A DNA stretch of 64,000 nucleotides from Patescibacteria group bacterium (GTDB lineage: Bacteria > Patescibacteriota > Patescibacteriia > 2-01-FULL-39-33), in the NCBI GenBank assembly GCA_041650895.1, contig JBAZKF010000001.1, forward strand, positions 17,685 through 81,684, given 5' to 3'. Of the stretch, positions 5,534-62,239 are shown piece by piece. A program made the translations under genes and the position numbers. The first letter of the stretch is position 1, and every line of letters begins with the position of its first letter. The notes below the pieces were generated by a model. That model saw only the letters and a program-made list of their open reading frames with translations, was not told the DNA's origin and did not search any database.

Positions 5534-6724
5534 CTAAATCACTTTTAATTTTACATCTGATCGTACCGTATCTTTATAGAGTACGCCATATTTGCCCCAC
5601 AAGTATTCATCAATAATCCTACAGGATTCCAGGTAGTGGCTATCCCACTCTCTAATTTTTTTAGCGCTGAATTCTTTCGGATCCTTGCCCTCCCTTAAGG
5701 CCTTGGCCTTGAGTCGGGCGACAGTCGGTCCGTAGGACTTTATCGGGCCAATATGGACGCGCAAAGCGAAGTTATCAATGTGTTTTTCAATCATTTCCAG
5801 CCAACCTTTTAAGGTGGCCGGATTTGGGTTATACATCTGCGGATAAATATCCAACCCCGCTTCAACTAGCGTGCGCAGGCAGAAGACTTGATCGGAAATG
5901 GTGGCATTGGCTTGGACGTTATCATGAAGATTGGCGTTGTCGGTGCCCTTAATGGCAGCCAAAACTTTAACCGGAAAAACTGCCAGGTGGCGGTAATAAT
6001 CAATCGGCCATAAATGGGGTGTGGAAAGATTGGTGTCCACTTGCCCGACAATATCTTCTCCTCGTTCTTCAATTCGGCGCCAGAGTTTAATGATCCAATC
6101 CAGCGCTACAGTCGGCTCACCGCCGGAAACGCGCAGGACCTTAATATTCAAATCAATTCCGGTTTGTTCCCTATAGATTTCCCGTACTTTGTCTCTGGCT
6201 ATTAGAAAGCTGTCAATAACATCGTCAGCATCAACCAGCCATTTCTTTCTGGTTTCCTGTAGGCCGTCATTGAGTTCATTATCCACGAAGCAGTATAAAC
6301 ATCCGCCGTCACAGGTTCCGGAATGGAAATTACAGCCGGCCACTTGCAGAATGAATGGCGCGTTATAATCCAGGGCGCGGGACAGCTCATAACCGGCTAC
6401 ATGTTTATACCATAGGGCAAAATCAAATTCCTGACGTTTGAGGTATTCCTCGACTTCACCTGGTGACATTCTACTGAGATCAACAAAATTCTTGCCGTAA
6501 GCTTTAGCCGCCAAGGGATCAACATCTTTGGCATTGAATTTAAAACGAAAAACCTTTCGCCCGTCTTTGTTAGGCATTAATTCTATAACCTTGCTGGTGT
6601 CTTTGCCCTGCAAGGTAGCGGAAAAATCAGCCACTAACAGCCGGCCGCCAGGCGTGATTAGTGTCTGGCGTAAGGCTTGAGCACGGTCTAAAGGACTTTG
6701 GACATACGATGGATTTTTAGGCAT
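5534..6724 (-). CDS. radical SAM enzyme of unknown function (AdoMet radical core with ~130-aa N-terminal extension)
   Basis: CDGGCLYC (CxxxCxxC) preceded by GCN, glycine-rich VSGGEPT SAM motif; AAGGAG Shine-Dalgarno; start overlaps the upstream ORF by 8 nt. Confidence 0.75.
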   Translation of the reverse strand: MPKNPSYVQSPLDRAQALRQTLITPGGRLLVADFSATLQGKDTSKVIELMPNKDGRKVFRFKFNAKDVDPLAAKAYGKNFVDLSRMSPGEVEEYLKRQEFDFALWYKHVAGYELSRALDYNAPFILQVAGCNFHSGTCDGGCLYCFVDNELNDGLQETRKKWLVDADDVIDSFLIARDKVREIYREQTGIDLNIKVLRVSGGEPTVALDWIIKLWRRIEERGEDIVGQVDTNLSTPHLWPIDYYRHLAVFPVKVLAAIKGTDNANLHDNVQANATISDQVFCLRTLVEAGLDIYPQMYNPNPATLKGWLEMIEKHIDNFALRVHIGPIKSYGPTVARLKAKALREGKDPKEFSAKKIREWDSHYLESCRIIDEYLWGKYGVLYKDTVRSDVKLKVI

Positions 6725-8252: not shown

Positions 8253-10124
8253 TTAAATTTTTTTCTTGACTCCATATAGCCACTTGTTTTGAGCCCATTT
8301 CCATTTAGCGGTCAAGAGCAGGAATTGCCGGCTGATGACAATAGCCGAGAACATGGAAACAGCGATACCCAGGGCCAGAGTAAAAGCAAAGCCGCGGATG
8401 ATACTGGAGCCGAACCAGAATAGAATAGCGCAAGTAATCAAGGAAGAGAAATTGGAATCGCGGATAGAAGTCCAGGCACGGCCAAAACCCTCATCAATCG
8501 CCTTCATTAAGTCTTTACCGGTGCGTAGCTCTTCTTTTAGGCGTTCAAAAATTAAAACGTTGGCATCCACGGCCATACCGATAGACAAAATGAAACCAGT
8601 GATACCGGCCAAAGTCATGGTTACATGAACGATTTTAAACAAAGCTAAGGAGATGGCGGTATAAATTACCAAAGCGACAACCGATAGTAAGCCGGGTAAG
8701 CGATAAAAGCCGATCATAAATAAAGCCACGGCCAGCAAGCCGATAAAACCGGCGAATAGGCTCTTTTGCACCGCTGCTTGACCTAGAGTGGCTCCGACAG
8801 TGGTTTGGGAAACTAATTTAATCGGCACAGGCAAGGCTCCGGCATTTAAGCGTTGGGCTAATTTTTTAGCTTCGTCTTGGGTAAAATTGCCTTGGATTAC
8901 GGCTTGGCCGCCTAAAATCGGTTCATTGACTTTAGGGATGGAAATCGCCGTACCGTCCAAGAAGATAGCGACCGGTTTGCCTACGTTTCTAGTGGTGATA
9001 TCAGCAAACAACTGTGCTCCCTCATTGTCAAATTCTAAAGATACCTGTGGCACTAAAGCGGTTTGATCATACTCTACGGAAGCTTTTTTTAGATTTTTTC
9101 CCGAAAGTTTGGTGTTAATCCATTCTGGTTCTTGGGCTATGCCTAAGTCAGTCGAGGTCTTGGTTTTTAGTAAAATATGGCGGACACTAACCGTACGGTT
9201 ATCCCCTGTCCCCTGATCCCCTTCCAATTTAATAATGTGATAACCAAAGGTAGTTTTGACCAAATCGGTATAAACCTCGCCAACTTTTAATTTATTGAAA
9301 GCAACATCGTCAAATTCAGTAACGAATTGTCCCTTTTTAACGCCTTCATATAACCCACCACTGTCTTTACTGCCGGGATCTTCGCTGTATTGTTTGGCTA
9401 AAGCGGAAAAATCACCGCCATTTTTTATCTGTTGTAAAACATCTACGGCTTGCTTACGCACTGTCAGATTCATGTCATCCAATTGTTTTTGTTGTTCCGG
9501 AGTCAATTGTTGCGCTTGCGGATTCTCTTCTTTGAATTCCAAAAGCGGCGTTTCGCCGATTATTTTGATGGCGGAATTAATGTCATAAACTCCGGCCAAC
9601 TCCACGCTGATGCGTGGATTATCGCCGGACATGGATGTTTGGACGACCGGTTCGGAAACACCTAAGGTATTGACACGTCGTTCAATTACATCTTTGACCC
9701 CGGCTAAAGCGTCGTTTTTGCCAGCTAGAGAGATTTGAGATAAATCGGCGTCATAAGTCAGTTGAGCACCGCCTAGAAGATCAAGGCCTAAACGGAAGGG
9801 CAGGCCGTAAGATGATAATTCGATTTGTTTGATATTGCGCCAAACCAACCGACTGCTATTATCGGAAACGTTTTTTTCCATTTTGGGAAAAACATTCAGA
9901 TTGGAGACGACGGGAATAGCTGATAGTCCGGCGTCTATCGTGTCGGCTGCTTTATTTTTGAAGCCAATAATATCAATATAGGCGGTAATCAAAAATAAAA
10001 CGGCAATACCAAAAAGCACCCAGCGGAGTCGGCCTCTTTGACCGGGTTTTAGCAGTTTTTCGAAGAAATTTTGCGGCATGTGTTTCTGTGGATAAGAGTT
10101 AAAATGATGGATAAATCTTAACAA
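8253..10124 (-). CDS. secD: protein translocase subunit SecD with an inserted parvulin-type PPIase domain
   Basis: GLDLLGG SecD motif and C-terminal 6-TM bundle; periplasmic region contains SALAKQYSEDPGSKDSGGLYEGV...FGYHIIKLE parvulin signature. Confidence 0.85.
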   Translation of the reverse strand: MLRFIHHFNSYPQKHMPQNFFEKLLKPGQRGRLRWVLFGIAVLFLITAYIDIIGFKNKAADTIDAGLSAIPVVSNLNVFPKMEKNVSDNSSRLVWRNIKQIELSSYGLPFRLGLDLLGGAQLTYDADLSQISLAGKNDALAGVKDVIERRVNTLGVSEPVVQTSMSGDNPRISVELAGVYDINSAIKIIGETPLLEFKEENPQAQQLTPEQQKQLDDMNLTVRKQAVDVLQQIKNGGDFSALAKQYSEDPGSKDSGGLYEGVKKGQFVTEFDDVAFNKLKVGEVYTDLVKTTFGYHIIKLEGDQGTGDNRTVSVRHILLKTKTSTDLGIAQEPEWINTKLSGKNLKKASVEYDQTALVPQVSLEFDNEGAQLFADITTRNVGKPVAIFLDGTAISIPKVNEPILGGQAVIQGNFTQDEAKKLAQRLNAGALPVPIKLVSQTTVGATLGQAAVQKSLFAGFIGLLAVALFMIGFYRLPGLLSVVALVIYTAISLALFKIVHVTMTLAGITGFILSIGMAVDANVLIFERLKEELRTGKDLMKAIDEGFGRAWTSIRDSNFSSLITCAILFWFGSSIIRGFAFTLALGIAVSMFSAIVISRQFLLLTAKWKWAQNKWLYGVKKKI

Positions 10125-54342: not shown

Positions 54343-54603
54343 AATGATTTATTATAAAATATATACCACTTGAAAATGAAAAAGATTTTACGCCTGAAGA
54401 TTTTGCTTGGTATAATATGACAATAATAATTGCTGATAATAAAAAACATGACATCTCAAATGATGAGTTGAAGAACAGAGTCAAAGATTTCCTTTTATTT
54501 GCAATAAGATAATATTGAATACTAAAAATACCACGGCAAAACCGTGGTATTTTTGAAGCTAAATAATTGAGGGGACTCAGTCATTTGAATTAGCGTGTAT
54601 TGG

Positions 54604-54750
54604 CTGGAGGTTTTTAATAAAATCCGAACCGAATTTCAGAAAAGCTTGCCCTGAGCGAAGTCGAATGGGTCATAATCGGTCGGGCGGAACCTGCCTGCCG
54701 GCAAACAGGCGAAACATTTGGACGACTGAGGCGGAATTGCAATTTCCAAT
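54604..54750 (+). repeat. ~150-bp island repeat element R1
   Basis: about 90 nt near-identical to R2 (AAATCCGAACCGAATTTCAGAAAAGCTTGCCCTGAGCGAAGTCGAATGGGTCATAA...), shared 3' end GAAACATYTGGACGRCTGAGGCGRAATTGCAATTTCCAAT containing palindrome GAAATTGCAATTTC. Confidence 0.75.
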
Positions 54751-54775
54751 CTTTTAGTGATATTAATAATAGAAT

Positions 54776-55525
54776 CTAGAAATGTTCATTCGGTTTTTCT
54801 CTCAATTCATTCTTAATCCCATATTCGGGATGCTTCTTTATCCAGTCTGAAATGTCAGTCCATTTAAGGCCATGAAAACCAAATTGACCATTCCATTTGG
54901 CACCGTATTCTTTATTTTTTTCAAAACTGAATTTGTGCGCTAATTTAACTGGAGCGAATTTTATGCCTAAGTTTTCTAAATATTTACGTTTAATGACAGA
55001 AATAATCCAATCTTCATTTTCCGCATATTTGTGGCTTGGTGAATCTTCAATATTAATACTTGGATCATTTTGCAATATTTCTAGCAGTTTCTTGCTTCGC
55101 AGACTAAAACCGCCATTGCCAACAACCAACTTATCTTTTACCCATAATGGTGCACCAATATAATCGTATTTCAAATATTCATCATCCCAAGCAGTGGAAT
55201 TCAAAATAAAACCGTCATATTGAATAATCAAAACAAAATCAGTCTTTATATAATTATTCAACTCCTTGAGAATGAATTGCGAGTATTTTTTAATCGATTC
55301 TACGGGGTTGATTTTGATGACATTTTTATTATCGGAAGAAATTGATGATAATAATTTAATATCGGCAAATTCAAAATCTTTGCAACAAATTTCTGCGGCT
55401 TTTATAAGTCGATCAATATCAACACAGTCAAGACCAAACAGTGTTACATTTTTTAGTTTTTTCATTTCTATGGATTGATAAAATGTTTTTGAGTTCTGAA
55501 AATTGTAATTAGCTAACACTGACAC
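54776..55525 (-). CDS. hypothetical protein (GTG start at 55525; alternative ATG at 55465 giving MKKLKNVTLFGLDC...)
   Basis: 249-aa ORF in cassette between R1 and R2. Confidence 0.5.
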   Translation of the reverse strand: MSVLANYNFQNSKTFYQSIEMKKLKNVTLFGLDCVDIDRLIKAAEICCKDFEFADIKLLSSISSDNKNVIKINPVESIKKYSQFILKELNNYIKTDFVLIIQYDGFILNSTAWDDEYLKYDYIGAPLWVKDKLVVGNGGFSLRSKKLLEILQNDPSINIEDSPSHKYAENEDWIISVIKRKYLENLGIKFAPVKLAHKFSFEKNKEYGAKWNGQFGFHGLKWTDISDWIKKHPEYGIKNELREKPNEHF

Positions 55526-55588: not shown

Positions 55589-56065
55589 TCATTTTTTAAT
55601 TGAATGCTTATCGGAAAATTTAGGGTTTGCAATGAATTCAGAAGTATCCGTATTGATAAATCCGATGATGTTTTCTGGAGAAATAACATTACTATCTTCC
55701 GTTTTAGAAAAAATATGTTCACTTGATGCCTTGATTGATCTTTCACGTGCTGAATATCCTCCAAAATCAGAAGAGTCGAATCCTTTGGGTACTGCAATTA
55801 GAATAATAATTGTTCTGCCACCATAATCCCAACCATCTAACTTGTGTAGCAAAGAATCTTGATTTTCTGGAATTCTACAGGCGATATCATGTATGGCGTT
55901 CCATTTGGTTCGAAGTCCTTTTTCAAGAATACTATCAGCTATTTCTCGATTTGAAACTCCATGACCCCAAATATCAACTGATTGTTGATATGTTTCCAAT
56001 GTTTTTAACAAATGGGTGTGTCGACTTTCAGAAGATTTTTTTTCAAACTTGTTCATAAATCTCAA
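55589..56065 (-). CDS. hypothetical protein
   Basis: 158-aa ORF preceded by upstream-element copy 2. Confidence 0.5.
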   Translation of the reverse strand: MRFMNKFEKKSSESRHTHLLKTLETYQQSVDIWGHGVSNREIADSILEKGLRTKWNAIHDIACRIPENQDSLLHKLDGWDYGGRTIIILIAVPKGFDSSDFGGYSARERSIKASSEHIFSKTEDSNVISPENIIGFINTDTSEFIANPKFSDKHSIKK

Positions 56066-56111: not shown

Positions 56112-56164
56112 CCACATTTCGGTATACAAAAATACCCCTAAAATAGGGGCATTTTGTCGCATCT
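56112..56164 (-). promoter_or_regulatory. conserved upstream element copy 2
   Basis: CACATTTCGGTATACAAAAATACCCCTAAAATAGGGGCATTTTGTCGCATCTG; hairpin CCCCTAAAATAGGGG. Confidence 0.5.
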
Positions 56165-56318
56165 GGAGGTCTTTAATCAAATCCGAACCGAATTTCAGAA
56201 AAGCTTGCCCTGAGCGAAGTCGAATGGGTCATAACCGGTCGGGCGGAATTCCCCCCCAAACCCCTCCTTCCGCCCGACCGAAACATCTGGACGGCTGAGG
56301 CGAAATTGCAATTTCCAA
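56162..56318 (+). repeat. ~150-bp island repeat element R2
   Basis: contains a perfect 12-bp hairpin GGTCGGGCGGAA-(TTCCCCCCCAAACCCCTCC loop region)-TTCCGCCCGACC. Confidence 0.75.
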
Positions 56319-56338
56319 TTTTTCTTTGGCGGCATTAA

Positions 56339-56773
56339 TTATATAATTTTATCAACCCACAGAACAGTGCCTTCTCTTTTAAATCCATATCTTTCGATAA
56401 ACTTAGAAAATAACTCCTGATCTTCGGCATTCACACAAAGCATAATATAAGTATATCCAAGATCTTTAACTTGCTTCAATCCTTCCTCTGTTAATTTTGC
56501 GGCCACTCCCAATCCGCGAGCGGATGGTGTCACGTAAAGATTTTCCCAAGTAATTTTCTTTGTTGGTATGTGAGCGGAATAAAAAGAAAAGCCAATAATT
56601 TCATTTTTTGTTTTTGCCACTAACAGAACATCACTAGGACTTTGACACCATTTTTTTAATTGTTCTTTACTCCAAAAAATTCCACTAGCACTAGCAAATT
56701 CTTTCTGTAAAGCACCTAGTTTATAAATCTCATCAATGTCCGTAATATTCATTCTAGATATTTGAAAATCCAT
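56339..56773 (-). CDS. GNAT family N-acetyltransferase
   Basis: acetyl-CoA binding motif region ...ARGLGVAAKLTEEGLKQVKDLGY...; 4 nt after the cyclodipeptide synthase gene. Confidence 0.8.
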   Translation of the reverse strand: MDFQISRMNITDIDEIYKLGALQKEFASASGIFWSKEQLKKWCQSPSDVLLVAKTKNEIIGFSFYSAHIPTKKITWENLYVTPSARGLGVAAKLTEEGLKQVKDLGYTYIMLCVNAEDQELFSKFIERYGFKREGTVLWVDKII

Positions 56774-56776
56774 ATA

Positions 56777-57478
56777 TTATTCGATATCGGCTATGCCTGT
56801 TTTATTTATAATTCTTAATTTATTCCTTAAACCATTATACTCATTACTTTTAATAATTTTTACTACTAATTCATCAAATTTACCTAATCCCGGATACAAA
56901 ATAACTGAATACAATTCACCACGATTAATAATCGAAACTCCATTCAAAAATAATGGCAATTCTTGTAGGACATAAAGAGCCACTGACTCGGCTCGATCTT
57001 TTGAAATAGTGCGTCCTCGTATTTTTAGCATTTCGTTAGAAATTTCCATTACCGAATTATAAAAAGCCTTTTGTTCAGAAAATTCCCTCATTAATACCTC
57101 TCGTTGTTTAACAAATTTTGGCGTTAAAGCATCATCATAGTTGGCGATAACAACCTTCTTTTGATCTTTTGCGGGCAATCTTGAGACGATTACTTCGACT
57201 TCTTGTCTTTTCTCATCTTCCATTTCGAAAGCCTTTTTTAATGATTGTGCTCTGCTTAAATTATCAATATACCTTAAATTAGAAACCTGAAGTCTCCCTG
57301 GGATTAAAATTAACAAGGATTTTTTAGTATGTATGAGGCCAAAATCAATAAGTTTTTCAAGATTATTTTTCGTGAACCATTTATTACCAAAACTTAAACC
57401 TATCCAAAGATTATATCTTTTTTTAAAGATATAATCTTTGGGAATTAATAATGTTTCTTTTATTTGAATTATTTCCAT
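56777..57478 (-). CDS. tRNA-dependent cyclodipeptide synthase (CDPS), XYP-type
   Basis: IGLSFGNKWF (catalytic Ser in the G-x-S-x-GN-x-x-F motif, compare AlbC IGISAGNSYF), LYVLQELPLF (AlbC NYVLAEAPLF; Tyr/Glu catalytic pair), SVILYPG (Y-P); about 233 aa as expected. Confidence 0.75.
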   Translation of the reverse strand: MEIIQIKETLLIPKDYIFKKRYNLWIGLSFGNKWFTKNNLEKLIDFGLIHTKKSLLILIPGRLQVSNLRYIDNLSRAQSLKKAFEMEDEKRQEVEVIVSRLPAKDQKKVVIANYDDALTPKFVKQREVLMREFSEQKAFYNSVMEISNEMLKIRGRTISKDRAESVALYVLQELPLFLNGVSIINRGELYSVILYPGLGKFDELVVKIIKSNEYNGLRNKLRIINKTGIADIE

Positions 57479-57514
57479 ATACGATTAATCTTATATGATC
57501 ATACCAAAATTATT

Positions 57515-57739
57515 TTATTCACAATAATAAAATACGCCACCATATTGATTTTTTTCTTGAAAGCTTAGGCTATCATAATCTTCAACACAGCTTCTAAATT
57601 TATCGTATTTATCTTCAGATTCATAATAATTATCTGACCACTCCTCAGCAGTCATACTTTCATATTTACCAATACTACAACCACTTAAAAACAGGAGAAA
57701 TAGTAATGACATAAATACAATGTAATATTTTTTTATCAT
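57515..57739 (-). CDS. small lipoprotein
   Basis: 74 aa; signal peptide with lipobox LSGC; acidic, 4 additional Cys. Confidence 0.5.
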   Translation of the reverse strand: MIKKYYIVFMSLLFLLFLSGCSIGKYESMTAEEWSDNYYESEDKYDKFRSCVEDYDSLSFQEKNQYGGVFYYCE

Positions 57740-57789
57740 AACAAATATACATTTTATTTTAGATTCAAACTAATATTATAAAATTAACT

Positions 57790-59604
57790 TTATTTAATCC
57801 CAGCCACTTTTTTTTCTTCGTCTGTCATTAGATGCGCGGGATTAATAGACTCCCACCAATAATTATTAAGACCTCTTTTTTGTATCGTTGTGATGTATTC
57901 AATTAATTTTAGTCTTACCTCAGTTTCTTGTAAATTCATTAATCCTGCAAGCTGTATACGAATATTTTTATCAAATAGAATTTTTTTTACGAATGGCATA
58001 ATTCTCTCTCCATAATATCTGCCAAAATCAGCCCATAAAGGTTCCCCATTATGCTCGGACAGTACAACAAGTAGGAAATTGGCCTGAAATTGAAAATTTT
58101 CAATTTTTCCATCCATTTTTGGTACTAATTCAATAAGCCAATCTTGATTTTTTAAATATTCCCTAATGTATTCATTCACTTTAGTTGAATGACCAGTCAG
58201 GGCACGAGTATAATGAAAATGATTATCTTCTAAAAAAGACATCGGTGGCTGATCAAAGTAATTTGGATTATCGAACTTAGTTTCAAGTAAAATTTTGAGT
58301 GGCGCATAATTATCTCTGGCTATACAAATAGTAGCTATAATGTATAAGATTTCAACAATTATAACTTCCGGAACCGCAATCAGAGAAATTAGACCGGATT
58401 TATTATTTGTAAGTTCAACTAAAGCTGTCAGATATTCACAGTATATTTTTATCTGATTTTTGTTGCCATATACTGAAATTGTAGCACCTAAATATATATA
58501 CTGATAACTACTCGCTTCCATGCGCGAAATAGCCTCTGGTATGCGATCCACATCCTGACCAATTTCCTGAAAAATTATTTCCCATTCCTTTTTTATTTTA
58601 GTGATTAATTTGTGGCACAATCTCTCAAAATTTAATATATTAATAGTTTCCACACTAGACCCGGAAGAACCAACAACAAAATTAATTGTTTCCTGCAAAA
58701 GTTTGTTTTTTTCATCCATCGTTAAATCAATCACTGGCACAGAAAAAATAGCATTTTGTAATTCTGGCGTTTTTGGTATCTCAATGGTTTCGGGCTTTAA
58801 ATGCAACCTCTTTTTAAACACTGGGAGAGTGAGATTACCCTCTAATTTACCTAACATGGTTGGTGTTTGAGTGTGTTTCCATTTGTCCCTAGCACGAGAG
58901 CTTACACCTTCTGCGATTGGACTAAAAATGTCTGTAGCTGAAAAATATTCACTAGGACGATTTTTTTGGAGTTCATCAAGTACATAATATGTAAATAAAC
59001 CATTTTTAAGTTCAGGATCTTCGATTGAAAGTTCATCATCTTTACTGGCAGTAAAAATCATACTACCATTACCAATTACTGTATTTGAAAATGATTTAAT
59101 ATTTTTAAATCCCTTGGTATTGGGGATTGGGTAATTTTTGGCATTTTTACTTACTGACCCACTAAAACAAGAATCAATAAAAATTAAATTTACTTTTGAT
59201 TTTAGGGATGTGAAAATATTTTTTATATCCTCTACTGATAAACAAGTATTTACAATATCATGAGTTGCATCATACGGCACTAAAAAGCTAAGTCCTGAAT
59301 TAATATTATTAGGATCATCAACTAATGCTCCGTGACCGGAATAGAAAAAGAAGAAAACGTCATCTGACTCGATATTATCCAGTAATTCTTTTCCTAACGC
59401 AGTCTTGATTTCTGAAAGAGTCGCCTCTTCATCAACTAAAAGTTTATTATACCCAATATTGCTAATATTTTGTTGAAATAATGAGAAAAACTCTGTTGCA
59501 TCTTTTTCTGCAAACGCTAGATTTGTAATTTGATTCTTATGCTTAGAAATTCCAATCGCAACAATATGATGTTTCATGAAATTAATTATTTTAGTAATTC
59601 CCAC
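57790..59604 (-). CDS. caspase-like (peptidase C14) domain protein with ~350-aa unknown C-terminal domain
   Basis: HIVAIGISKH...FFFYSGHGA (His) ... LIFIDSCFSG (Cys) dyad; GTG start with GGGAG Shine-Dalgarno, alternative ATG at 59577. Confidence 0.7.
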   Translation of the reverse strand: MGITKIINFMKHHIVAIGISKHKNQITNLAFAEKDATEFFSLFQQNISNIGYNKLLVDEEATLSEIKTALGKELLDNIESDDVFFFFYSGHGALVDDPNNINSGLSFLVPYDATHDIVNTCLSVEDIKNIFTSLKSKVNLIFIDSCFSGSVSKNAKNYPIPNTKGFKNIKSFSNTVIGNGSMIFTASKDDELSIEDPELKNGLFTYYVLDELQKNRPSEYFSATDIFSPIAEGVSSRARDKWKHTQTPTMLGKLEGNLTLPVFKKRLHLKPETIEIPKTPELQNAIFSVPVIDLTMDEKNKLLQETINFVVGSSGSSVETINILNFERLCHKLITKIKKEWEIIFQEIGQDVDRIPEAISRMEASSYQYIYLGATISVYGNKNQIKIYCEYLTALVELTNNKSGLISLIAVPEVIIVEILYIIATICIARDNYAPLKILLETKFDNPNYFDQPPMSFLEDNHFHYTRALTGHSTKVNEYIREYLKNQDWLIELVPKMDGKIENFQFQANFLLVVLSEHNGEPLWADFGRYYGERIMPFVKKILFDKNIRIQLAGLMNLQETEVRLKLIEYITTIQKRGLNNYWWESINPAHLMTDEEKKVAGIK

Positions 59605-59792
59605 GCTTCAACTCCCAAGGCATTGGCTAATTTATATAAATTTTCTAATGTAGGGTTTACCCGGCCACTTTCCACCCGGCAGATATAGGCGCGGTCAATT
59701 CTGCTTGAACGAAAAACGTCGCCTTGAGTTAGGCCTTTTTCCTCTCGTATCCGTTTAAAATTAACGGCAAGTTTTTTGCTTAATTTATGCAT
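59586..59792 (-). CDS. XRE-family helix-turn-helix transcriptional regulator
   Basis: 68 aa; IREEKGLTQGDVFRSSRIDRAYICRVESGRVNPTLENLYKLANAL. Confidence 0.75.
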   Translation of the reverse strand: MHKLSKKLAVNFKRIREEKGLTQGDVFRSSRIDRAYICRVESGRVNPTLENLYKLANALGVEAWELLK

Positions 59793-59951: not shown

Positions 59952-60069
59952 ATTCCGCCTCAGCCGTCCAGATGTTTCGGTCGGGCGGAAGGAGGGGTTT
60001 GGGGGGGGAATTCCGCCTGACCGATCATAATTTTTGTTGAAATTCGGTTCGGATTTGTTCATAAACACC
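59952..60069 (-). repeat. island repeat element R3 (inverted orientation relative to R1/R2)
   Basis: reverse complement shares AAATCCGAACCGAATTTCA and the GG(T)CRGGCGGAATTCCCC...CCTCCTTCCGCCCGACCGAAACATCTGGACGGCTGAGGCGGAAT hairpin region with R2. Confidence 0.7.
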
Positions 60070-60144
60070 CAGCCAGTTTCGCTTTTCATTTTTTAAAACA
60101 GAATTCCAACCGTTTTTTGGCTTAAATTCAAATTTTTTGCCTTG
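60070..60144. repeat. 75-bp perfect inverted repeat, left copy (flanks the recombinase gene)
   Basis: exact reverse complement of 61563-61637, checked base by base. Confidence 0.85.
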
Positions 60145-60206: not shown

Positions 60207-61694
60207 ATGAAATACTTTCTTTACGCCCGCAAGTCGACAGACGAAGAGGAGCGTCAAGTCCTTTCAATTGAAGCCCAGCTCGCAGAGCTGAAGGAGTTAG
60301 CCGCCAAAGAAAAATTGGAAATTGCTGACTCGCTCTGCGAGTCTAAAACCGCCAAAGAACCAGGCCGAAAAATTTTCGGCGAAATGCTCGCTCGGATTGA
60401 AAAAGGTGAAGCCGACGGAATTTTAGCGTGGCACCCAGATAGATTGGCCAGAAATAGCGTTGATGGTGGGAAGATTATCTACATGGTGGATATTGGCCAG
60501 ATTAAAACGCTGAAATTCCCGACTTTTTGGTTTGAGAATACTCCGCAAGGTAAATTCATGCTCAATATCGCTTTCGGCCAGAGCAAATACTATATTGATA
60601 ATTTAAGCGAAAATGTTAAGCGCGGATTCAGACAAAAGTTAAGGCGTGGCGAATATCCCAACAAAGCGCCTATTGGCTATCTTAATGACCGCATGGCTAA
60701 AACCGTGCTTATTGATCCTCTGCGCGCCAAGCTGATAATCAAGATGTTTGAGATGTACAGCACGGGAGAATTTTCGCTTAAATTTCTAAAAGATAAGTTT
60801 TGCGATATCGGTCTGACCAGTAAGCGAGGAAAAATCCTGACTGTCGGCATGATTTCTAATATATTGAGCAATCCCTTTTATTGCGGAGTATTCAAGTTTA
60901 ATGGCGAAATATACCAAGGCAAGTACGAGCCGATTATTTCCAAGAAGCTTTTTGATGAAGTTCAGGCGGTAATGCGGGATCGCGGCCGGCCGCTCGGGCA
61001 AGACAAGCACGACTACGCATTTACAGGACTAATGAAATGCAAATGCGGCGCCTGCATTACCGCTGAACGGCAAAAAGGCCATATCTATTATCGCTGTACG
61101 AAAAAGCTCGGAGCCTGCGATGAAAAGTATATCCGCGAAGAAAACTTGCTGGAGCAATTCTATGGCCTTTTTCAAAAAGCTTCTTTGTCTGATGACTGGA
61201 TTGACAAGATGCTCGCCAAACTGGACGAGGAACAGAAAAGCGATATGAAGTCATCTATTGGTCTGATTGATGAGGTTAAAGCGCAAATTGGTGGCCTAGA
61301 GAGCAAGTTAGACAAGTTATTAGATGACCGATTAGAAGGGTTATTGGACAAGGACGACTATTTGCGCAAGAAAGAACAGCTCATCAATCAAAAAATCACT
61401 TTTGAGGACAAAATCCAGTCAATCAGGCAAACAGGAAATAATTGGCTCGAACCGATGAGAGAATTCCTTTTCGCCAATAAACAAACCAAAAAAGTCGCCA
61501 ATGGCGGCGACCTTCTAGAGATTAGAGCATTTATTAAAAAAATCGGCTCGAACTTTATTTTGCAAGGCAAAAAATTTGAATTTAAGCCAAAAAACGGTTG
61601 GAATTCTGTTTTAAAAAATGAAAAGCGAAACTGGCTGCGGGACAGGGACTCGAACCCCGATACCACCCTCCAGAGGGGCGTGTCCTACCATTAG
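60207..61694 (+). CDS. large serine recombinase (resolvase/invertase catalytic domain plus recombinase and zinc-ribbon/coiled-coil domains)
   Basis: N-terminal YARKSTDEEERQVLSIEAQ (catalytic Ser region), RLARN, CxxC...CxxC zinc ribbon; 3' end runs through the right IR and antisense into the tRNA. Confidence 0.85.
   Translation: MKYFLYARKSTDEEERQVLSIEAQLAELKELAAKEKLEIADSLCESKTAKEPGRKIFGEMLARIEKGEADGILAWHPDRLARNSVDGGKIIYMVDIGQIKTLKFPTFWFENTPQGKFMLNIAFGQSKYYIDNLSENVKRGFRQKLRRGEYPNKAPIGYLNDRMAKTVLIDPLRAKLIIKMFEMYSTGEFSLKFLKDKFCDIGLTSKRGKILTVGMISNILSNPFYCGVFKFNGEIYQGKYEPIISKKLFDEVQAVMRDRGRPLGQDKHDYAFTGLMKCKCGACITAERQKGHIYYRCTKKLGACDEKYIREENLLEQFYGLFQKASLSDDWIDKMLAKLDEEQKSDMKSSIGLIDEVKAQIGGLESKLDKLLDDRLEGLLDKDDYLRKKEQLINQKITFEDKIQSIRQTGNNWLEPMREFLFANKQTKKVANGGDLLEIRAFIKKIGSNFILQGKKFEFKPKNGWNSVLKNEKRNWLRDRDSNPDTTLQRGVSYH
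61563..61637. repeat. 75-bp perfect inverted repeat, right copy, abutting the tRNA-Gln 3' end
   Basis: CAAGGCAAAAAATTTGAATTTAAGCCAAAAAACGGTTGGAATTCTGTTTTAAAAAATGAAAAGCGAAACTGGCTG. Confidence 0.85.
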
Positions 61695-61705
61695 ACGATC
61701 CCGCA
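61635..61705 (-). tRNA. tRNA-Gln (anticodon CUG)
   Basis: hand-folded cloverleaf; U1-A72; anticodon loop CUCUGGA; T-loop TTCGAGT; about 80% identical to the tRNA-Gln(UUG) at 29.6 kb. Confidence 0.8.
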
Positions 61706-61790: not shown

Positions 61791-61799
61791 TATAACACT

Positions 61800-62150
61800 G
61801 AGTATGACGGATAGTTACTCTTTGGCCTTAGGCCGAAGAGAGGAAAGTCCGAACACCCTTTTCGGCGCAAGCCGGAATGTCGCGGTAATGGGTAACGCCC
61901 ACCCGGACAGTCGTAAGGCTGGCCGAGGACCAGTTCCACAGAGACAATACTAACGAGATGCGCAAGTATTTCGCGAAAGGTGAAAAGTGTAGCGAAGTAT
62001 TAAGTTGAGAGTGAGATATCTCCTCAAATTAATGCCACCCTACTCAACTCCCAGCGATGGGCAGTTGTGGTAAACTCTACCTGGTGCAACCCCGTTTCGG
62101 GGGCTTGATCATGCCGGTAACGGCAATGACAGACAGATGACTATCGTTTT
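61800..62150 (+). ncRNA. rnpB: RNase P RNA (bacterial type A-like)
   Basis: universally conserved GAGGAAAGTCCG(AAC)... P4 strand, GGTAACGCC, terminal P1 pairing GGATAGT/ACTATC, followed by T-run. Confidence 0.7.
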
Positions 62151-62206
62151 TTACGGCCGCAAGGTTAGTAAAAAATACAGAATTCGGCTTATAGTCATAT
62201 TCAGTT

Positions 62207-62239
62207 AAAAAATACTTCGCTGCTGCGAGGTATTTTTTT
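62207..62239. terminator. bidirectional intrinsic terminator between rnpB and rnhA
   Basis: A6-TACTTCGC-TGCT-GCGAGGTA-T7. Confidence 0.6.

Follow-up and report, generated by a model that had tools for sequence, protein, structure and literature searches.

We propose that the 64,000-nucleotide (nt) stretch of Patescibacteria DNA analysed here (the window) carries, at positions 56339-57478, a two-gene secondary-metabolite module in which a tRNA-dependent cyclodipeptide synthase (CDPS) and a co-translated GNAT acetyltransferase act on one pathway, and that this module resides on a mobile, AT-rich cassette. We place the probability of this reading at about 0.72, with the substrate class, the role of the GNAT and the actual making of a cyclodipeptide being the parts that we infer. 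The two genes and a small lipoprotein open reading frame (ORF) are arranged as follows:

56339-56773, minus strand: GNAT gene, 144 aa
56777-57478, minus strand: CDPS gene, 233 aa
57515-57739, minus strand: lipoprotein ORF, 74 aa

Family assignment and predicted fold of the CDPS

An earlier, sequence-only reading of this DNA had recognised a CDPS in the 233-aa protein from its catalytic serine, a Tyr/Glu pair and the Tyr-Pro signature of the XYP subfamily, and this identification stands. The protein passes the PF16715 profile (51.7 bits, gathering score 27) and the TIGR04539 profile of NCBIfam (65.7 bits, cut-off 45), in both cases over residues 17-203, and Ser29, Tyr169, Glu173 and Tyr195-Pro196 align with the family residues. 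The two observations that this reading had named as able to overturn it, a missing PF16715 match or the loss of the catalytic Ser, Tyr or Glu on alignment, were thus not made. In the translation these residues lie in the motifs IGLSFGNKWF (Ser29), LYVLQELPLF (Tyr169 and Glu173) and ILYPG (Tyr195-Pro196). The best solved relatives are seven entries of ParcuCDPS (7QB8 and mutants; E ~1e-18 for 7QB8/7QAT, full-length alignment over residues 14-211). The window enzyme itself belongs to a clade of about 30 proteins that are 51-91% identical to it and about 28% identical to ParcuCDPS.

An AlphaFold model built on 24 sequences of this clade (mean predicted local distance difference test score, pLDDT, 94.2; predicted template modelling score, pTM, 0.90) displays the class-I aminoacyl-tRNA synthetase-like Rossmann fold common to solved CDPSs. 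Foldseek comparison of the model with the PDB, a check of the kind that the sequence-only reading had suggested, returned CDPS structures for all of the top 50 matches (TM score 0.6-0.8), with ParcuCDPS as the best match (TM 0.76-0.82), followed by the P. gingivalis, S. sapporonensis, YvmC, BtCDPS, Fdum, AlbC, Rv2275, Nbra and Rgry enzymes. By family, catalytic residues and predicted fold, we thus consider the 233-aa protein a genuine tRNA-dependent cyclodipeptide synthase.

Between close relatives, the ratio of nonsynonymous to synonymous substitution rates (dN/dS) is 0.09-0.20 for the CDPS, GNAT and lipoprotein genes, indicating purifying selection. The three ORFs are hence not chance readings, since the CDPS passes curated profiles and all three genes have homologues under such selection. 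The CDPS gene has a GC content of 0.298, and a scan for promoters and terminators was uninformative, with 21 promoter-like sites against 18.6 expected.

Active site and predicted substrate pocket

In CDPSs, the nucleophilic serine and the catalytic Tyr/Glu pair correspond to S37 and Y178/E182 of AlbC, and the XYP subfamily is recognised by Tyr-Pro at AlbC positions 202-203, where NYH enzymes have a histidine. We mapped the window CDPS onto ParcuCDPS through a HMMER alignment (27.6% identity, 196 columns), with the following outcome:

ParcuCDPS S26 (catalytic): window S29, conserved
ParcuCDPS Y167 (catalytic): window Y169, conserved
ParcuCDPS E171 (catalytic): window E173, conserved
ParcuCDPS Y191 (catalytic): window Y195, conserved
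ParcuCDPS P192 (subfamily signature): window P196, conserved

S26, Y167, E171 and Y191 of ParcuCDPS are essential according to mutagenesis (PMC7613923). Among 24 clade members, G27, S29, G31, N32, E173, Y195 and P196 are invariant, with the nucleophile Ser29 placed in a G-x-S motif (G27-L-S29-F-G-N32). The X position of the XYP signature is Asn32 in the window enzyme. Because Ser29, Tyr169, Glu173 and Tyr195-Pro196 are kept, the alignment assigns the window CDPS to the XYP subfamily.

The first substrate (P1) was approached through three ParcuCDPS positions only. The histidine pocket of that enzyme, formed by Y55, E174 and Y189, is replaced by L58, L176 and I193 in the window CDPS, and combinations of Y55V, E174L and Y189L in ParcuCDPS abolish the use of histidine and yield cyclo(Leu-Pro) and cyclo(Phe-Pro) instead (PMC7613923). 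Since L58, L176 and I193 resemble these engineered variants, we predict with modest confidence a hydrophobic P1 residue, e.g. Leu, Phe or Met, for the window enzyme.

A dedicated GNAT partner

The start codon of the GNAT gene lies 4 nt past the CDPS stop codon, leaving a 3-nt spacer (junction ...GAATAATATATGGAT...). The encoded protein is a single PF00583 domain (43 bits, cut-off 20.7) with the acetyl-CoA motif R86-G-L-G-V-A91, of which R86 and G89 are invariant, and its predicted structure, modelled from database homologues, matches GNAT folds (pLDDT 83). That the neighbouring GNAT is a real partner, as the sequence-only reading had supposed, is borne out by the relatives: the gene adjoins the CDPS in eight of ten distinct clade loci (the window, L001, L002, L004, L006, L008, L012 and L013), at spacings between a gap of 11 nt and an overlap of 16 nt. 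The pairing also occurs in L027, there with a gap of 63 nt and a CDPS only 26% identical to that of the window. In L006/L007 the order is swapped, the GNAT gene standing upstream with its stop codon overlapping the CDPS start.

Among 5.8 billion proteins, the GNAT family comprises 17 homologues (55-91% identity), all located on contigs equal in size to those of the CDPS matches. Across 38 loci, the 106 ORFs on either side of the CDPS contain no recurrent Pfam families other than GNAT, the only frequent one (nine occurrences), class-I S-adenosylmethionine-dependent methyltransferases (four) and SET (two). Judged from these sequence data, the GNAT is a dedicated, conserved partner of the window CDPS clade.

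As for its function, the nearest profiles and folds are no more than generic acetyltransferases of amines or of N-termini, among them polyamine/PaiA enzymes, RimI, Ard1/Naa10, ArsN/phosphinothricin acetyltransferase and streptothricin acetyltransferase, with all profile matches falling far below the family cut-offs, e.g. 32.5 bits against 86.4 for RimI. A tRNA-dependent GNAT of the Fem/PacB type, which has two GNAT domains and a tRNA-binding helix (PMC12945691), was considered and rejected: the window protein has one domain and 144 aa, compared to about 330 aa for that type. Families of tRNA-acetylating toxins (TacT, AtaT, ItaT type) did not appear among its NCBIfam, PADLOC or recognisable top PDB matches, in a survey that included no direct comparison with toxin references, and the adjacent gene is a CDPS rather than an antitoxin.

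N-acetyltransferases have been reported, on statistical grounds only, to be more frequent than any other accessory domain located within 2.5 kb of CDPS genes (PMC5767969), and a GNAT-fold ligase has been noted near a Rickettsiella CDPS (PMC2922099). The suggestion of the sequence-only reading that neither partner belongs to a known CDPS pathway is therefore right in part: no characterised CDPS-GNAT pathway was found in the searchable literature, but the association of CDPSs with N-acetyltransferases as such had already been recorded.

Proposed mechanism of the CDPS-GNAT pair

Based on these assignments, we propose that the module would operate as follows. The CDPS would draw two aminoacyl-tRNAs out of the translation pool, the first of them presumably carrying Leu, Phe, Met or another hydrophobic residue. 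In the ping-pong reaction of the family, the aminoacyl group would initially be attached to Ser29 as an ester and then be extended to a dipeptidyl-enzyme with the assistance of Glu173 and Tyr169, prior to cyclisation and release of a 2,5-diketopiperazine. The co-translated, acetyl-CoA-dependent GNAT would most likely N-acetylate a free amine of the product, of a precursor or of a side product.

Some observations weigh against this proposal. A few members of the CDPS clade have Phe at the position of Tyr169, and the essential Asp58 of ParcuCDPS, the partner of the catalytic serine, is Gly61 in the window enzyme and Gly or Ser throughout the clade. The predicted P1 preference leans on three positions aligned at 27.6% identity. 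For the pairing, the clade members L009 and L010 have no GNAT gene, with rpoB following the CDPS in L009, so the CDPS can stand alone; and a CDPS-GNAT fusion, sought among the longer CDPS relatives as Rosetta-stone evidence, was not found. Lastly, a typical N-acetyltransferase would find no free amine to act on in a plain diketopiperazine.

With regard to the active site, Asp58 of ParcuCDPS is hydrogen-bonded to the catalytic serine and has been proposed to form a Ser/Asp dyad with it, and its replacement by Gly61 implies that the site is organised unlike that of the only characterised close relative. Arg62, directly after Gly61, is invariant in the clade. As both the Ser/Asp dyad and the histidine pocket of ParcuCDPS are unmatched, the window CDPS is, as judged from the alignment, related to the ParcuCDPS type yet distinct in specificity and in mechanistic subtype.

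The lack of a free amine in the diketopiperazine ring also means that the bare ring is probably not the GNAT substrate. Likely candidates are an amine on a side chain of the product, an intermediate or side product that is linear, or another compound of the pathway. Alternatively, the GNAT may intercept the reaction before cyclisation by acetylating the alpha-amine of the aminoacyl-tRNA or of the aminoacyl- or dipeptidyl-enzyme, giving a linear N-acetyl-dipeptide or an N-acetyl-amino acid, either alone or beside the diketopiperazine. Such a role would suit an enzyme whose nearest relatives (RimI, Ard1, ArsN/PAT, PaiA) act on alpha-amines or other primary amines, which the ring does not offer, and the tight translational coupling together with the order swap of the two genes suggests close cooperation, possibly in a complex. 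We nevertheless regard interception as unlikely, because the CDPS retains Tyr195, which is implicated in cyclisation, the GNAT shows no likeness to tRNA-acetylating toxins in NCBIfam, PADLOC or its top PDB matches, and no precedent is known in the CDPS family, for which a 2026 review sets out one conserved ping-pong mechanism of cyclisation (PMC12945691). Action of the GNAT on an amine within a diketopiperazine-forming pathway thus stays our preferred reading.

A probable mobile cassette at a tRNA-Gln site

The pair is embedded in a block, from about 53.9 to 60.0 kb of the window, that is AT-rich (GC 0.27-0.38 in 500-nt windows, compared to ~0.43-0.45 in the flanks), and the CDPS region forms an AT-rich dip in most loci checked. 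The block and its borders contain the following features:

54601-54755, plus strand: repeat copy A, direct with copy B; bounds a cassette of DUF5672 and a 158-aa ORF
54776-55525, minus strand: DUF5672 protein (82.9 bits)
55589-56065, minus strand: 158-aa ORF without family match, in the cassette between copies A and B
56163-56333, plus strand: repeat copy B, directly 3' of the GNAT gene; starts CTGGAGG; cassette boundary
57790-59604, minus strand: caspase-like (Peptidase_C14) protein, 604 aa (PF00656, 65.9 bits; SGHG and DSCFSG intact)
59586-59792, minus strand: XRE-family helix-turn-helix (HTH) protein, 68 aa (PF01381, 51.5 bits); overlaps the start of the caspase-like gene
59952-60075, minus strand: repeat copy C, inverted relative to copy B
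60207-61694, plus strand: large serine recombinase, 495 aa (Resolvase, Recombinase and Zn_ribbon_recom domains)
61632-61705, minus strand: tRNA-Gln(CTG), anchor of the variable region
61799-62207: RNase P RNA, following tRNA-Gln

The repeat, of about 160 nt in the window (~120-160 nt across contigs), is present there in exactly three copies, of which B and C bracket the GNAT, CDPS, lipoprotein, caspase-like and HTH genes. It is composed of a T-arm-like CCGAACC, a GC-rich hairpin (GGTCGGGCGGAA..TTCCGCCCGACC) and, at the end, small fragments of the recombinase gene; the 3' end of copy B is an antisense fragment of recombinase codons ~32-40. Copies A and C open with TGGCTG, the same letters as the end of the tRNA-Gln gene, and TGGCTGG is the start of the repeat in its general form. 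Neither an Rfam family, in gathering or E-value mode, nor a tRNA called by ARAGORN was found for the repeat, which we read as a decayed integration (att) junction, although it could also be an active recombination site. Further copies are located in L001 (7160-7300 and 7990-8105), L002 (2280-2460) and L043-L055.

The repeat follows the GNAT gene also in L001, L002, L045 and L055. The window, L001 and L002 share the DNA block of repeat, GNAT, CDPS and lipoprotein at 86-90% identity, while the flanking genes differ, being FtsEX and polysaccharide genes in L001 and DUF6498 and RNase P RNA in L002. By this pattern, the CDPS-GNAT pair and its 3' repeat together act like an AT-rich mobile cassette, set in variable DNA downstream of tRNA-Gln. 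Moreover, a metagenome scan with the repeat core identified 13 contigs, among which the same scaffold was occupied by other cargo:

L051: near-identical recombinase and tRNA-Gln; HTH-like ORF, N6/N4 DNA methylase, probable endonuclease, serine hydrolase
L043: tRNA-Gln ~40 nt from copy C, recombinase absent between them; HTH, ATPase, lipoprotein, TIR protein
L044: RecJ and tRNA-Gln neighbourhood as in the window; HTH, 508-aa protein, repeat, DUF5672; no CDPS

Since sister contigs hold other cargo on the same tRNA-Gln/repeat scaffold, the region is a variable, defence-flavoured hot spot. The sequence-only reading had placed the pair on a mobile island of a reduced-genome bacterium, in agreement with the tRNA-Gln and recombinase, the AT-richness and the cargo that varies among sister contigs. 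At the level of sequence, a recombinase beside a tRNA, deviant GC and cargo differing between relatives mark the region as an integrative island.

On both sides of the recombinase gene lie perfect inverted repeats of 75 nt (60070-60144 and 61563-61637). The outer ends of these repeats (CAGCCAG/CTGGCTG) coincide with the 3' end of tRNA-Gln, and the 3' end of the recombinase gene overlaps the tRNA-Gln gene on the opposite strand. Near-identical recombinases are found in L047, L051 and L052. Because the whole unit is missing from the otherwise collinear L043 and L044, it looks like a separately inserted element. L015 has the same layout with tRNA-Glu(TTC), which there overlaps a homologue of the window recombinase at a distance of about 3 kb from the CDPS.

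The HTH gene has homologues heading differing cargo in L043, L044, L047 and L050; in L051 a 74-aa HTH-like ORF occupies the same position, for which phmmer gave no match to the window HTH. In L044, a DUF5672 gene again follows the repeat. Two of the sister contigs hold apparent defence systems, in L043 (2867-5885) composed of the HTH, an AAA_15/AAA_21 ATPase, the lipoprotein, a 98-aa ORF and a TIR-domain protein, and in L051 (435-4173) of the HTH-like ORF, a 170-aa ORF, the N6/N4 DNA methylase, a 176-aa ORF and the serine hydrolase. In L008, inverted copies of tRNA-Gln(CTG) at 5888-5959 (plus strand) and 9196-9269 (minus strand) bracket 3.2 kb with the CDPS, the GNAT, a PRA-PH-like ORF, a 122-aa ORF and a glycosyltransferase, an arrangement that may represent an inversion or duplication at the hot spot.

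Neighbouring genes and the possibility of a conflict module

The 74-aa ORF has a textbook lipoprotein signal peptide, with a positively charged N-terminus, a hydrophobic stretch and a lipobox (MIKKYYIVFMSLLFLLFLSG followed by C, i.e. cleavage between LSG and C), and its dN/dS is 0.10-0.16. The sequence-only reading was correct about the ORF and its lipobox just upstream of the CDPS. Its inclusion in the cluster did not hold: homologues stand beside the CDPS only in the closest relatives (L001-L003, L045 and L055), the gene is absent from the more distant L004, L006, L008, L012 and L013, and in L043 it occurs without a CDPS. There, DNA homology to the window is limited to 57514-57775 (262 nt), i.e. 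the lipoprotein gene and 36 nt, placed between the AAA_15/AAA_21 ATPase gene and the 98-aa ORF, which is followed by the TIR-domain gene. From this distribution the lipoprotein is taken as a neighbour that shuffles independently and not as a member of the CDPS-GNAT module.

The caspase-like protein matches the PADLOC models 'caspase' (6e-10) and, in its C-terminal region, PDC-S65 (2e-8), and is likely a defence or abortive-infection candidate unrelated to the CDPS. Neither the window caspase-like gene nor the HTH gene was found beside any other CDPS among the loci compared. We regard the caspase-like protease with its HTH, and also the serine recombinase, as neighbours independent of the CDPS-GNAT pair, just as the lipoprotein is.

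In such surroundings the pair could itself be a conflict module, i.e. an anti-phage, abortive-infection or inter-bacterial toxin system that drains or modifies aminoacyl-tRNAs as cargo of a defence hot spot, in place of an antibiotic or signalling pathway. It shares its repeat-bracketed stretch with the HTH and the caspase-like protein matching PADLOC models, and equivalent slots are filled by the DNA methylase and putative endonuclease in L051 and by the ATPase, lipoprotein and TIR protein in L043, with the TIR protein exactly at the place of CDPS-GNAT. However, the CDPS has no PADLOC match and the best match of the GNAT (E 0.049) is not significant, leaving a known defence system unsupported, and in L001, L004, L006, L008, L012 and L013 the pair sits among housekeeping, glycosyltransferase and methyltransferase genes rather than defence genes. 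In addition, CDPS turnover is slow (~0.002-0.005 per min for ParcuCDPS, PMC7613923) and therefore a poor means of depleting a tRNA pool. We consider a conflict function very unlikely, and favour the biosynthetic role. The ideas of the sequence-only reading that the GNAT could N-acylate the diketopiperazine, that the product is a signal or toxin and that the enzyme would hijack the aminoacyl-tRNA pool are speculative and unsupported.

Linkage to tRNA-Gln and tRNA-Glu genes

The association with tRNA genes extends beyond the window. Ten of the 27 tRNA genes in CDPS loci are tRNA-Gln, compared to 1.2 expected from a share of 2/45 tRNAs (P ~1e-7, and ~8e-6 after collapsing three loci with identical tRNA), and three of the 27 are tRNA-Glu. 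Genes for tRNA-Gln (mostly CTG) or tRNA-Glu accompany the CDPS in L001, L004, L008, L013, L018, L023, L027, L030, L037, L038, L042 and the window, each of them upstream and on its strand except for the second, inverted tRNA-Gln copy of L008, and lie within 3-30 nt of the longest possible CDPS ORF start in L008, L023, L030 and L038. The linkage is seen even for CDPSs that are only ~25% identical. Shared synteny of tRNA-Gln and RNase P RNA was rejected as its cause, as RNase P RNA accompanies only the closest relative L002. No integrase lies between tRNA and CDPS in L008, L013, L037 or L042.

The excess of these tRNAs upstream, on the CDPS strand and at several gaps of 3-30 nt, may speak for a functional link, in which a co-transcribed tRNA supplies or marks Glu-tRNA(Gln), Gln-tRNA(Gln) or Glu-tRNA(Glu) for a cyclo(X-Glu/Gln) product; Glu is a frequent substrate of XYP enzymes, and cyclo(His-Glu) is among the products of ParcuCDPS (PMC5816076). 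Against this, the same tRNA-Gln(CTG) site is found without CDPS cargo in L043, L044 and L051, the tRNA of the window and that of L015 are each overlapped by a serine recombinase gene, the tRNAs resemble ordinary housekeeping isoacceptors that diverge with their hosts, and the DPANN and many CPR relatives have no tRNA near the CDPS. We consider a functional tRNA very unlikely and favour an integration hot spot, which explains the linkage through the recombinase overlap and through the CDPS-free cargo that fills the same tRNA-Gln site in relatives. Combining several of the above ideas, the cassette could be tRNA-coupled, with the CDPS using the upstream-encoded tRNA-Gln/Glu and the GNAT capping the aminoacyl or dipeptidyl intermediate or the aminoacyl-tRNA, to give an N-acetylated linear product or a translation-targeting effector in an episymbiont defence hot spot; this we judge decidedly unlikely.

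Relatives, distribution and prior annotation

The CDPS is identical to MFA5124282.1 in NCBI, annotated as 'MAG: tRNA-dependent cyclodipeptide synthase [Patescibacteria group bacterium]' on a 957,791-bp contig, and the GNAT is present as MFA5124281.1. In a scan of one genome per GTDB species, 35 loci with CDPS relatives were found, nearly all from the candidate phyla radiation (CPR; Paceibacteria, Saccharibacteria-labelled bins, Zambryskibacteria and others) or from DPANN archaea. The subfamily is small, a profile search of 1.84 billion cluster representatives having yielded 277 clusters that pass E<=1e-3 and 49 that pass E<=1e-30. An exact-sequence look-up of contigs with the window CDPS gave no match, so gene contexts were taken from the relatives P0004, P0005, P0008 and P0020; the identities of the CDPSs to that of the window are 87% in L001, 89% in L002/L003, 61% in L006/L007, 57% in L004/L005/L011, 56% in L008, 55% in L012, 53% in L013 and 26% in L027. 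The view of the sequence-only reading that CDPS genes are rare outside Actinobacteria, Firmicutes and a few Proteobacteria was overstated, considering ParcuCDPS, the 35 GTDB loci and the existing NCBI annotation.

SET domains are normally protein lysine methyltransferases, and we know of no description of a CDPS-SET architecture. Longer CDPS relatives within this CPR/DPANN subfamily proved to be fusions, with SET in three clusters (P0056, P0057 and P0109), with a class-I S-adenosylmethionine-dependent methyltransferase in two (P0138 and P0167) and with a phosphoribosyltransferase in one (P0132). Two loci show altered CDPS genes: in L013 the gene is split into two ORFs (6007-6282 and 6329-6700) beside an intact GNAT, with a methyltransferase and a pyridoxal-phosphate decarboxylase-like gene upstream, and in L010 (5608-6315) the C-terminal ~25 residues are gone and a GNAT is missing.

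The window CDPS is accordingly an uncharacterised member of a known family, in a lineage already holding a characterised representative. What is new here is a separate small CDPS clade with an aliphatic pocket, a dedicated GNAT family and a mobile cassette at tRNA-Gln.

Significance

Patescibacteria (CPR) have very small genomes with few known secondary-metabolite genes. That such genomes keep a mobile, conserved pair which is under purifying selection and spends aminoacyl-tRNAs suggests that a small peptide product matters for the host-attached lifestyle. The dedicated GNAT partner, the predicted naturally hydrophobic P1 pocket and the cassette-like mobility at a tRNA-Gln hot spot remain of interest despite the earlier annotation of the family. 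The clade provides a naturally occurring parallel to the ParcuCDPS mutants with engineered pockets, and the CDPS-GNAT pair may be the first tractable one, given the small size of the two proteins and the good expression of ParcuCDPS in E. coli. The repeat-bounded tRNA-Gln region, in turn, offers a compact example of the apparent exchange of accessory and defence-like genes in reduced genomes.

Comparison with known systems

The nearest solved relative, ParcuCDPS (CDPS 90), derives from Parcubacteria bacterium RAAC4_OD1_1, was studied in 2022 (structures 7QB8 and mutants, PMC7613923), and produces cyclo(His-Pro) as well as the cyclo(His-Glu) mentioned above (PMC5816076). Like the window CDPS, it belongs to the XYP subfamily and stems from the same superphylum of tiny bacteria, and the two enzymes share GNKWF after the nucleophile. 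Unlike it, the window CDPS, only ~28% identical, has neither the histidine pocket nor Asp58. Among the ~25%-identity relatives sampled (L014-L042), which we take to stand for the wider ParcuCDPS-like group, a GNAT partner occurs only in L027.

Canonical CDPS pathways comprise AlbC with cyclodipeptide oxidase, Rv2275 with CYP121, YvmC with CypX and BcmA with 2-oxoglutarate dioxygenases. The window CDPS resembles these in standing beside a dedicated modifying enzyme in a compact putative operon. It differs in that the partner is a small GNAT and in that the canonical pathways are mostly of the NYH type and from Actinobacteria, Firmicutes and Proteobacteria. The GNAT, in turn, shares a single domain of ~145 aa and the acetyl-CoA motif with RimI, Ard1/Naa10, ArsN1/phosphinothricin acetyltransferase and PaiA, and is set apart from them by belonging to a 17-member family found only beside the window CDPS clade.

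For the mobility, a precedent exists in the bicyclomycin CDPS clusters, which move on mobile elements near tRNA genes (PMC5930311). As in tRNA-anchored islands and integron arrays, the window region has variable cargo downstream of a tRNA, an adjacent recombinase and cassettes of 1-5 genes between repeats. Unlike in such systems, the recombinase is of the large serine type, carries 75-nt inverted repeats of its own and is missing from some islands; and unlike integron attC sites, the window repeats resemble decayed tRNA 3' ends joined to junction fragments of the recombinase gene.

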